17,757 nucleotides of DNA from a virus (Duplodnaviria; Heunggongvirae; Uroviricota; Caudoviricetes): IMG/VR virus record IMGVR_UViG_2877285697_000007; one strand, given 5' to 3'. The position numbers and the translations under genes were made by a program. Shown here piece by piece: positions 10,955-14,373 of this stretch. Within the stretch, counting starts at the first letter, position 1; the number at the start of each line of letters is the position of its first letter. The notes beneath the pieces were generated by a model, which had not been told where the DNA came from, searched no databases, and saw only the letters and a list, made by a program, of their open reading frames with translations.

Positions 10955-11026
10955 TGAAGTGGCACACTGAATTTGGCCACCTGAACAGAGGTGATATGCT
11001 CACCTCAGAACAACACAGGTGCTCCA

Positions 11027-11329
11027 ATGAAAAAAAGAAATTTTAGCGCAGAGTTTAAACGCGAATCCGCTCAACTGGTTGTTGACCAGAAATACACGGT
11101 GGCAGATGCCGCCAAAGCTATGGATGTTGGCCTTTCCACAATGACAAGATGGGTCAAACAACTGCGTGATGAGCGTCAGGGCAAAACACCAAAAGCCTCT
11201 CCGATAACACCAGAACAAATCGAAATACGTAAGCTGAGGAAAAAGCTACAACGCATTGAAATGGAGAATGAAATATTAAAAAAGGCTACCGCGCTCTTGA
11301 TGTCAGACTCCCTGAACAGTTCTCGATAA
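11027..11329 (+). CDS. IS911 OrfA (HTH / leucine-zipper transposase subunit), 100 aa
   Basis: [49 protein letters not shown]... The track ORF starts at an upstream GTG (10991); the ATG at 11027 is preferred. Confidence 0.88.
11278..11284 (+). other. Programmed -1 ribosomal frameshift heptamer A-AAA-AAG joining orfA to orfB
   Basis: The heptamer lies in the orfA frame (codons AAA 11279-11281, AAG 11282-11284). orfB is in the -1 frame and its reading frame is open across this site. Confidence 0.75.
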
Positions 11330-11355
11330 TCGGGAAACTCAGAGCGCATTATCCT

Positions 11356-12195
11356 GTGGTCACACTCTGCCAAGTGTTCGGGGTTCATCGCAGCAGCTAC
11401 AGATACTGGAAAAACCGTCCTGAAAAACCAGACGGCAGACGGGCTGTATTACGCAGTCAGGTACTTGAGCTACATGGCATCAGCCATGGTTCGGCCGGAG
11501 CAAGAAGCATCGCCACAATGGCAACCCGGAGAGGCTACCAGATGGGACGCTGGCTTGCTGGCAGGCTCATGAAAGAGCTGGGGCTGGTCAGCTGTCAGCA
11601 GCCGACTCACCGGTATAAACGTGGTGGTCATGAACATGTTGCTATCCCTAACTACCTTGAAAGGCAGTTCGCCGTGACCGAGCCAAATCAGGTGTGGTGC
11701 GGTGATGTGACCTATATCTGGACGGGTAAGCGCTGGGCGTACCTCGCCGTTGTTCTCGACCTGTTCGCAAGAAAACCAGTGGGCTGGGCCATGTCGTTCT
11801 CGCCGGACAGCAGGCTCACCATGAAAGCGCTGGAAATGGCATGGGAAACCCGTGGTAAGCCCGGCGGGGTGATGTTCCACAGCGATCAGGGCAGTCATTA
11901 TACGAGCAGGCAGTTCCGGCAGTTATTGTGGCGATACCAGATCAGACAGAGTATGAGCCGGCGCGGAAACTGCTGGGATAACAGCCCAATGGAACGCTTC
12001 TTCAGGAGTCTGAAGAACGAATGGATGCCGGTGGTGGGTTACGTAAGCTTCAGCGAGGCAGCTCACGCCATAACGGACTATATCGTTGGATATTACAGCG
12101 CACTAAGACCGCACGAATATAACGGTGGGTTACCCCCAAACGAATCGGAAAATCGATACTGGAAAAACTCTAACTCGGTGGCCAGTTTTTGTTGA
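11356..12195 (+). CDS. IS911 OrfB (DDE integrase-like catalytic domain), expressed as an OrfAB fusion
   Basis: 279-aa [23 protein letters not shown]... with an rve-type core ([30 protein letters not shown]). Confidence 0.88.
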
Positions 12196-12289
12196 CCACT
12201 TCACAAATGTGCGCTGGCTATTACGGCTGTAATGGCGATTTATTGTCTTGCTATTGTTCTTATGGATCGCCTTTCTGACTGATTTCACA

Positions 12290-12318
12290 TTGGCGAGGTA
12301 ACGGTAGTTAAGTAGAAT
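12290..12318 (+). promoter_or_regulatory. Candidate sigma-70 promoter of the hok mRNA: -35 TTGGCG, 17-bp spacer, -10 TAGAAT
   Basis: Hexamers read from the sequence. It sits just upstream of GGGTGCTTGAGGCTATCTGCCTCGG (12326-12349), which resembles the 5' leader element of plasmid R1 hok mRNA as I recall it. Confidence 0.45.
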
Positions 12319-12493
12319 GGCTGCGGGTGCTTGAGGCTATCTGCCTCGGGCATGAACACCAACGGCAGATAGAGAAAAGCCCCAGTTAACATTACGCGTC
12401 CTGCAAGACGCTTAACATTAATCTGAGGCCAATTTCATGCTAGACACATGTAGGTTAGCCTCTTACGTGCCGAAAGGCAAGGAGAAGCAGGCT

Positions 12494-12649
12494 ATGAAGC
12501 AGCAAAAGGCGATGTTAATCGCCCTGATCGTCATCTGTTTAACCGTCATAGTGACGGCACTGGTAACGAGGAAAGACCTCTGCGAGGTACGAATCCGAAC
12601 CGGCCAGACGGAGGTCGCTGTCTTCACAGCTTACGAACCTGAGGAGTAA
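12494..12649 (+). CDS. hok: Hok/Gef-family type I toxin, 51 aa
   Basis: MKQQKAMLIALIVICLTVIVTALVTRKDLCEVRIRTGQTEVAVFTAYEPEE: one N-terminal transmembrane helix and the conserved DLCE motif; closest recalled paralogs are HokD/RelF and HokC/Gef. RBS AAGGAGAAG precedes the ATG. An in-frame ATG at 12437 gives a 70-aa mok-like extension. Confidence 0.85.
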   Translation: MKQQKAMLIALIVICLTVIVTALVTRKDLCEVRIRTGQTEVAVFTAYEPEE

Positions 12650-12718
12650 GAGACCCGGCGAGGGAGAAATCCCTCGCCACCTCTGATGTGGCAGGCATCC
12701 TCAACGCACCCGCACTTA

Positions 12719-12749
12719 ACCCGCTTCGGCGGGTTTTTGTTTTTATTTT
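12719..12749 (+). terminator. Intrinsic terminator of the hok transcript
   Basis: Stem ACCCGC / GCGGGT with a TTCG loop, followed by TTTTGTTTTTATTTT. Confidence 0.75.
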
Positions 12750-12865
12750 CAACGCGTTTGAAGTTCTGGACGGTGCCGGAATAGAATCAAAAATACTTAA
12801 GTAGCGCGCAGGGATAAGAGGGATGGTCCCTTAAAGGGGAGAGCTAATTATCCGGAAGGATTCTG

Positions 12866-12949
12866 ATGATGAACATCGAAGAACTGCGTAAAATTTTTTG
12901 TGAAGATGGCCTCTATGCTGTGTGCGTTGAAAATGGAAATCTTGTTTGA
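12866..12949 (+). other. Small ORF (27 codons, MMNIEELRKIFCEDGLYAVCVENGNLV) apparently truncated by IS911
   Basis: Good RBS (AAGGA, 5-nt spacer). Its stop codon TGA is the first three bases of the IS911 copy B terminal repeat, so it is either a gene remnant or a chance ORF. Confidence 0.25.
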
Positions 12950-12954
12950 AGTGG

Positions 12955-13794
12955 TCAACAAAAACTGGCCACCGAGTTAGAGTTTTTCCAGTATCGATTT
13001 TCCGATTCGTTTGGGGGTAACCCACCGTTATATTCGTGCGGTCTTAGTGCGCTGTAATATCCAACGATATAGTCCGTTATGGCGTGAGCTGCCTCGCTGA
13101 AGCTTACGTAACCCACCACCGGCATCCATTCGTTCTTCAGACTCCTGAAGAAGCGTTCCATTGGGCTGTTATCCCAGCAGTTTCCGCGCCGGCTCATACT
13201 CTGTCTGATCTGGTATCGCCACAATAACTGCCGGAACTGCCTGCTCGTATAATGACTGCCCTGATCGCTGTGGAACATCACCCCGCCGGGCTTACCACGG
13301 GTTTCCCATGCCATTTCCAGCGCTTTCATGGTGAGCCTGCTGTCCGGCGAGAACGACATGGCCCAGCCCACTGGTTTTCTTGCGAACAGGTCGAGAACAA
13401 CGGCGAGGTACGCCCAGCGCTTACCCGTCCAGATATAGGTCACATCACCGCACCACACCTGATTTGGCTCGGTCACGGCGAACTGCCTTTCAAGGTAGTT
13501 AGGGATAGCAACATGTTCATGACCACCACGTTTATACCGGTGAGTCGGCTGCTGACAGCTGACCAGCCCCAGCTCTTTCATGAGCCTGCCAGCAAGCCAG
13601 CGTCCCATCTGGTAGCCTCTCCGGGTTGCCATTGTGGCGATGCTTCTTGCTCCGGCCGAACCATGGCTGATGCCATGTAGCTCAAGTACCTGACTGCGTA
13701 ATACAGCCCGTCTGCCGTCTGGTTTTTCAGGACGGTTTTTCCAGTATCTGTAGCTGCTGCGATGAACCCCGAACACTTGGCAGAGTGTGACCAC
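12955..13794 (-). CDS. IS911 OrfB (DDE catalytic domain), copy B
   Basis: Identical 279-aa translation to copy A OrfB. Confidence 0.88.
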
Positions 13795-13820
13795 AGGATA
13801 ATGCGCTCTGAGTTTCCCGA

Positions 13821-14123
13821 TTATCGAGAACTGTTCAGGGAGTCTGACATCAAGAGCGCGGTAGCCTTTTTTAATATTTCATTCTCCATTTCAATGCGTT
13901 GTAGCTTTTTCCTCAGCTTACGTATTTCGATTTGTTCTGGTGTTATCGGAGAGGCTTTTGGTGTTTTGCCCTGACGCTCATCACGCAGTTGTTTGACCCA
14001 TCTTGTCATTGTGGAAAGGCCAACATCCATAGCTTTGGCGGCATCTGCCACCGTGTATTTCTGGTCAACAACCAGTTGAGCGGATTCGCGTTTAAACTCT
14101 GCGCTAAAATTTCTTTTTTTCAT
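13821..14123 (-). CDS. IS911 OrfA, copy B, 100 aa
   Basis: Identical translation to copy A OrfA. ATG at 14121-14123; the slippery heptamer maps to 13866-13872 on the minus strand. Confidence 0.88.
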
Positions 14124-14373
14124 TGGAGCACCTGTGTTGTTCTGAGGTGAGCATATCACCTCTGTTCAGGTGGCCAAATTCAGTGTGCCACTTCATTGAG
14201 AACCAGCACCACAACCTCCTGTATTGGACGTACACCAGTCCTGATGAATATGAGGCTGTCTCGTCAGTGATTCAATACAACTATTGGGTATAGTTTCTCT
14301 GATTTTTTCTGTGGAAATGGGGCTCAACCACTAGTCATTTAATACGCAAAGTCCGATACAAGCTAACCTTCTA

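Follow-up and report, generated by a model that had tools for sequence, protein, structure and literature searches.

A hokD locus flipped between two inverted IS911 copies, a probable scar of insertion-sequence-driven decay in a lambda-like prophage

How does a small toxin locus come to lie between two identical insertion sequences (ISs) that face each other inside a prophage remnant? The question is raised by a stretch of viral DNA of 17,757 nucleotides (Caudoviricetes; IMG/VR record IMGVR_UViG_2877285697_000007; hereafter the window), in which two copies of IS911, at 10955-12203 and 12947-14195, enclose a 743-bp spacer carrying hokD, a toxin gene of the Hok family. The whole window (17,757 of 17,757 nucleotides) is identical to sequence in the complete assemblies CP026827.1 and CP119450.1, with the spacer in the same orientation in both. 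For the first of these (GCF_002949935), the species label is Shigella dysenteriae, and it groups with S. boydii (PMC10501659, Table 2). We think it likely, though well short of certain, that IS elements have eroded a lambda-like prophage in a Shigella chromosome, that the locus is the scar they left and that homologous recombination was part of the mechanism. Taken alone, the steps that the sequence shows, namely entry of IS911 at a CAA, an inverted second copy in rem, inversion of 743 bp and loss of everything from the middle of L to the middle of rem, are very probable.

Two IS911 copies and their flanking triplets

A repeat finder returned 10955-12203 and 12947-14195 as a perfect inverted repeat, with arms of 1,249 nt that are 100% complementary and stand 743 nt apart, and direct string comparison gave copy A (10955..12203, plus strand) as the exact reverse complement of copy B (12947..14195, minus strand). 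A perfect repeat of 1,249 nt cannot have arisen by chance. Each arm starts with TGAAGTGG and ends with CCACTTCA, and the element, 1,249 bp in length, has a terminal inverted repeat of 28 nt that is imperfect (75% complementary). In copy A, the left inverted repeat (IRL) begins at 10955, orfA extends from 11027 to 11329 with a slippery AAAAAAG at 11278, orfB ends at 12195, and the right inverted repeat (IRR) ends at 12203; orfB starts at 11356, which places it in the −1 frame relative to orfA. The transposase genes are intact in both complete copies: in each, orfA encodes 100 amino acids (aa) with a match to Pfam HTH_Tnp_1 (E 5e-14), and orfB encodes an rve integrase core (E 3e-32). Several E. 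coli strains have elements that PGAP/RefSeq annotates as 'IS3-like element IS911 family' transposase, and these match the arm with 100% identity along all 1,249 nt. IS911, an IS3-family element first described from Shigella dysenteriae, shares with the present copies the termini TGAAGTGG...CCACTTCA, the orfA/orfB layout, the A6G −1 frameshift motif and the 3-bp target duplication, and nothing of note distinguishes either copy from it. The length of 1,249 bp is close to the reference length of about 1,250 bp. The OrfB-proximal (IRR) ends of both copies point inward, copy A lying on the plus strand and copy B on the minus strand. An earlier note on this DNA, made from the letters alone, had described just such a pair of identical inverted copies with inward OrfB-proximal ends around a 743-bp spacer, and alignment of the fully complementary arms bears it out.

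The origin of the pair can be read from the 3-bp flanks. These are AAG and CAA around copy A and GTT and TTG around copy B, as the earlier note had given them, and the outer flanks of the whole IS911-hokD-IS911 unit, AAG and TTG, do not match. From these triplets the note had concluded that no target-site duplication matches, which is wrong. CAA, which adjoins copy A on its inner side (12204..12206, plus strand), and TTG, which adjoins copy B on its outer side (14196..14198, plus strand), are reverse complements of each other. Moreover, the reverse complement of 14199-14260 followed by 12204-12260 reproduces exactly the intergenic sequence between the HAD-family hydrolase gene and hokD in three E. 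coli prophages (L001, L002 and L004), whose uninterrupted site holds a single CAA; in E. coli 2018-166 this sequence reads ...GGTGCTGGTTCT CAA ATGTGCGCTGG... Direct 3-bp duplications (GGA, TAC and TAT) flank three of four other IS911 copies, which are identical or 99.9% identical to those in the window and have the same boundaries, confirming both the IS boundaries used here and the 3-bp length of the duplication. CAA and TTG are therefore the two halves of one 3-bp duplication, split onto different IS copies by inversion of the spacer; they read as reverse complements because the 743-bp hokD-rem' segment is inverted. The split points to an in-place insertion of IS911 at CAA and a subsequent inversion between two inverted copies, the only arrangement that, in our reading, explains it.

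The same intergenic stretch is occupied by another element in E. coli O157:H16 (L003, NZ_CP062876.1), where positions 4004-5252 hold a different IS3-family element of 1,249 bp with TGTAGTGG ends, 41 bp away from the CAA site that precedes hokD. It is flanked by GAA and TGG, which do not match, and the genes on its left are unrelated. It looks like an independent IS3-family insertion accompanied by a rearrangement; a common ancestral insertion was considered and rejected, the element being a different one, with TGTAGTGG ends like those of the ISEc52 type, and inserted 41 bp away.

The flipped segment and the deletion from L to rem

In intact relatives, the genes O-...-DUF977-NUDIX-HAD-hokD-rem-DUF968-rusA-Q-lysis-head-tail lie on one strand throughout. 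In the window, the HAD-family hydrolase gene (14458..15096, minus strand; Pfam HAD_2), which is the native neighbour of hokD in the NUDIX-HAD-hokD synteny of intact prophages, lies on the strand opposite to hokD, whereas in intact prophages the two genes share a strand. Alignment with the E. coli relative AR_0017 (L019) locates the breakpoints. The match of the left flank ends at 14997, inside an intact gene L (14649-15347). The spacer aligns in reverse, from 37700 to 36960, and is thus reversed with respect to both outer flanks. The match of the right flank starts at 37698 and overlaps that of the spacer at 37698-37700, which is the 3-bp TTG. The interval 14998-36959 of AR_0017 (21,962 bp) is absent from the window; it contains the tail genes M to Z, with the tape-measure gene, T, G and the tail tube genes, and the head, portal, terminase and lysis genes, two tRNAs, Q, rusA, DUF968 and the 3′ part of rem.

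Both ends of the missing interval abut an IS911 copy. On one side, the 3′ remnant of gene L, a lambda-type minor tail gene (10606..10954, minus strand), retains about 116 C-terminal codons and breaks off where copy A begins with its outer (IRL) end; the L side of the junction reads ...GACGAAG. Its match to Pfam Phage_tail_L covers profile positions 82-206 of 206 (E 7.8e-52), in agreement with the earlier statement that L is truncated at this IS end. On the other side, a 5′ fragment of rem (12866..12946, plus strand; 81 nt, the first 27 codons) is cut by the inner (IRR) end of copy B, and the rem side of that junction reads ...AATCTTGTT; full-length rem is found at 6663-6914 of L001. The comparison shows that the L|IS and rem|IS junctions mark a deletion of about 22 kb, this length being that of the interval in a relative.

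Matches to the spacer with at least 80% coverage and annotated hokD and rem were found in 1,837 of the 5,426 complete E. coli genomes searched. The earlier note had proposed looking for the hok segment in other genomes, and its native context proved to be the NUDIX-HAD-hokD-rem order of lambdoid prophages, so that hokD stands beside its native neighbours here, merely flipped, rather than as cargo brought by the IS. Overall, the note's general conclusion, that IS-mediated rearrangement rather than a single clean transposition produced the locus, is upheld together with parts of its description; its claim about the duplication falls, and it had missed the native context of hokD, the 5′ end of rem in the spacer and the ~22-kb deletion.

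The account that we favour is as follows. One IS911 inserted in place at CAA, between the HAD-hydrolase gene and hokD, generating the usual 3-bp duplication, and a second copy, in the opposite orientation, lies inside rem. The 743-bp hokD-rem' segment, which is flipped relative to every intact relative examined, would have been inverted when the two copies, as identical inverted repeats of 1,249 bp, underwent homologous (RecA-type) recombination. An IS911 copy at L would account for the ~22-kb deletion, either as a partner in recombination or by deleting adjacent DNA. Inversion between inverted repeats by homologous recombination is a standard outcome (PMC8072062).

Several points weigh against this account. 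The present arrangement fits more than one order of insertion, inversion and deletion. Intermediate states were looked for and not found: the L'|IS, rem'|IS and IS|HAD junctions gave no match covering at least 80% of the 120-nt queries in the 5,426 complete E. coli genomes, the collections searched here and below being without the complete genomes of Shigella boydii and Shigella dysenteriae. When a segment lies between inverted repeats of 1.25 kb, its orientation is beyond the reach of reads that do not span the IS. Expression of hok and Sok, and the toxicity of the former, are predictions from sequence. Finally, the data fit both homologous recombination and an intramolecular event mediated by the transposase, which would leave identical scars.

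In such an event, an IS911 end would attack the same molecule, duplicating the IS in inverted orientation and flipping the intervening DNA in one step, and an adjacent one-ended deletion into L or rem would follow. This is a possible origin of the locus, although we judge it rather unlikely. Intramolecular replicative transposition is generally expected to yield a duplication split as reverse complements, inverted copies and one junction pair without duplication; the 100% identity of the two copies is what a recent duplication would give, and the L and rem junctions lack a matching repeat. However, identity is equally expected if the IS911 copies of a genome are near-identical, and copies that are 100% identical occur even in unrelated E. 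coli. Furthermore, elements of the IS3 family, including IS911, normally move by a copy-out/paste-in route in which the intermediate is a circle. Simple insertions flanked by direct duplications are the result, which counts against this alternative, and three of the four other IS911 copies are of just this kind. Homologous recombination between 1.25-kb repeats, by contrast, needs no special assumption.

The hokD locus inside the spacer

The spacer (12204..12946, plus strand; 743 bp) is a segment of the prophage early-right region, inverted with respect to its native orientation. The complete-looking hok locus that had been noticed there (promoter, leader, 51-aa toxin and terminator) is supported by profile matches and site scans. 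The hokD toxin gene (12494..12649, plus strand) encodes 51 aa and matches Pfam HOK_GEF (PF01848) with 82.9 bits against a cutoff of 22 (E 1.2e-23), covering the full 42-position profile; matching E. coli regions are annotated as hokD. The leader (12325-12499) matches Rfam RF01794 'sok' at model positions 1-157 with 115 bits (gathering score 59). Since this match lies on the sense (plus) strand and ends just past the hok AUG, the model represents the hok mRNA leader with the Sok target and not the Sok transcript. A consensus scan placed a sigma-70-like candidate promoter for the hok/mok mRNA (TTGGCG-17-TAGAAT; 12290..12318, plus strand) just upstream of the leader start at 12325, and a site scan placed a terminator-like site of the intrinsic type at 12718-12735 (plus strand). 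From the leader match to the intrinsic terminator, the putative full-length hokD mRNA would occupy 12325..12745 (plus strand; 421 nt).

The positions of mok, hok and Sok were set by alignment to the annotated K-12 hokC/mokC/sokC locus. A mok-like open reading frame (ORF) of 70 aa (12437..12649, plus strand) is in frame with hok and ends at a common stop codon, its start aligning with the annotated K-12 mokC start. By alignment to annotated K-12 sokC, a candidate Sok-like antisense RNA (12369..12445, minus strand) would run from 12445 to about 12369. A candidate Sok promoter was read by eye, with a −35 TTGCCT at 12480-12475 and a −10 TAACCT at 12457-12452 (17-nt spacing); its score does not reach the cut-off used in that scan for promoters. 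On the minus strand, the stretch 12445-12360 has a predicted fold in which a U-rich tail comes after a long hairpin (z = −4.3). The putative hokD mRNA has a predicted minimum free energy (MFE) of −173 kcal/mol, with z = −8.0 against shuffled controls. In both the MFE and the centroid structure, nucleotides 1-12 pair with CCUCAACGCACCC, an fbi-like element just upstream of the terminator; the predicted 5′-3′ fold-back is typical of the kind seen in hok mRNAs (tac/fbi).

All recognisable hok/mok/sok elements (promoter, leader, mok, hok, Sok region, fbi-like element and terminator) lie inside the spacer, with 86 bp between the left IS end and the −35 hexamer and 211 bp between the terminator stem and the right IS end. 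To judge from this layout, the locus was not damaged by the IS rearrangement and most likely encodes a working type I toxin-antitoxin system, in which a stable hok mRNA would be kept silent by its 5′-3′ fold-back and by an unstable Sok antisense RNA. Type I toxin-antitoxin loci of this kind have been reported to be enriched in prophages (bioRxiv 10.1101/2025.08.07.668861).

Over its full length, the spacer is 99.9% identical to the hokD-rem region of E. coli 2018-166. The lone mismatch, at 12447, is a C here and a T in E. coli 2018-166; its position is within codon 4 of mok and 2 nt upstream of the putative minus-strand start of Sok. The hokD (relF)-rem segment of the K-12 Qin prophage is 99.8% identical over the common part (12480-12946; NC_000913.3 1644822-1645288) and matches only from 12480 on, so that the K-12 copy is without the leader and Sok region. 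The locus described here, by contrast, retains the full leader, as do the copies of intact lambdoid prophages, from which it differs by a single base. In K-12, IS186A lies 20 bp from hokC, whereas the IS elements here lie outside every recognisable hok regulatory element. According to Pedersen and Gerdes (1999), IS150 and IS186 are reportedly found close to the K-12 hokA, hokC and hokE loci.

The spacer carries other signals besides. At the left edge, a terminator-like hairpin, GCTATTACGGCTGTAATGGC, with a T-rich tail (12217-12236, plus strand) is natively found 3′ of the NUDIX-HAD genes; it may be the terminator of those genes, now separated from them by the IS insertion and the inversion. 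Upstream of the cut rem, a promoter-like site (TTGAAG-18-TAGAAT; 12758-12787, plus strand) now drives only a 27-codon stub into the IRR of copy B. A hybrid outward promoter directed into hok, with TTGACC of the IRR as its −35, was considered and discarded: it has no acceptable −10, and the scan found only the native hok promoter and the one upstream of rem. An invertible regulatory switch was likewise rejected. Both inner IS ends are the same IRR and the surroundings of hok are the same in either orientation, so that everything within 1.25 kb of hok stays as it was when the spacer flips, and the inversion cannot serve as an expression switch.

Might hokD, being addictive, have survived between the two IS copies as an island of 743 bp? 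Were hok/sok lost through an IS-mediated deletion, the stable hok mRNA would persist in the absence of Sok and be lethal to the cell, so that only deletions stopping short of the locus would be recovered, and the ~22-kb deletion does stop 211 bp past the hokD terminator stem. We consider this explanation doubtful. If it were true, the island would record the limit that a toxin-antitoxin locus sets to the reduction of prophages and genomes in Shigella, and would be a natural example of a deletion constraint. In a weaker variant, the short spacer may flip continually, giving a mixed population of isomers.

Spacer orientation, prophage context and comparison with known systems

The orientation of the spacer could itself be an assembly choice, or that of one of two coexisting isomers. 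In the alternative isomer, copy B would be a plain insertion with direct TTG/TTG repeats and copy A would mark the L-rem deletion junction. Both inner junctions are formed by the same IRR, only reads longer than 1.25 kb plus flanks fix the orientation, and in the draft assembly L007 the contig breaks at the IS boundary. Nevertheless, the two complete genomes were deposited separately and agree in orientation, and even with coexisting isomers, inversion between the copies would remain the explanatory process. We therefore regard an artefactual or alternating orientation as improbable. More generally, the orientation of the 743-bp spacer is unreliable in short-read assemblies, and further inversion or deletion at the inverted IS911 pair is plausible.

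That the unit is a composite transposon that brought hokD here, as two complete IS copies with intact transposase genes around a small cargo might suggest, is effectively refuted: no single duplication surrounds it (AAG against TTG), its outer right and inner left flanks are contiguous in native prophages, which means that the cargo was already there, no copy of it occurs in the 5,426 E. coli genomes, and the rem|IS911 junction is likewise absent from 72,556 plasmids and, as an exact 25-nt rem'|IS pattern, from species-representative genomes, the last being a weak test, as that collection probably merges Shigella into E. coli.

The remainder of the window bears further IS elements. On the minus strand, the lambda-like prophage remnant comprises genes for tail-fibre assembly and tail fibre, lom, an IS4-family element, J (5838-9251), I, K and the cut L; beyond the IS911-hokD-IS911 block follow the genes for the HAD hydrolase and the NUDIX hydrolase, a DUF977 gene and a cut replication gene O that abuts IS600. 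The IS4-family transposase gene (Nterm_IS4 and DDE_Tnp_1; 442-448 aa) lies between J and lom at about 4388-5734 (minus strand). At the other end, the stretch 16403-17757 (minus strand) holds the cut gene O, as a 174-aa ORF (16403-16927), and the abutting IS600 copy, whose orfB (16939-17757) continues past the window edge. In the source genome, the far side of IS600 carries a FimH-like fimbrial gene and then a molybdopterin-oxidoreductase gene. Since IS600 abuts the cut O and other ISs lie inside, the prophage has been reduced by IS elements at both ends and in the middle. Elsewhere in the remnant, Rfam RF02111 'IS009' gives a full-length match at 160-358 (minus strand; 226 bits, gathering score 117); it falls inside the tail-fibre-assembly ORF at 120-701, so that this 'RNA family' match overlaps prophage coding sequence.

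Beyond annotation, the locus is of little importance, being ordinary IS-driven genome decay: IS911 and hokD are both well known, as are the inversions and deletions that IS elements delimit in Shigella, and public genomes already contain this sequence. For annotation, hokD should be described as a complete hok/mok/sok locus and the L and rem fragments as pseudogenes. The locus also illustrates neatly that a 3-bp duplication whose halves have been parted betrays an IS-mediated inversion once they are read as reverse complements, and that IS911 erodes Shigella prophages while a small toxin-antitoxin module stays intact.

The arrangement resembles the IS-bounded inversions and deletions described in Shigella and E. 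coli (PMC8072062) in its identical inverted IS copies, its flipped interior, its split duplication and the loss of adjacent prophage genes. Compared with other inversions bounded by IS elements, however, the inverted segment is unusually short: at 743 bp, it is shorter than the repeats themselves.

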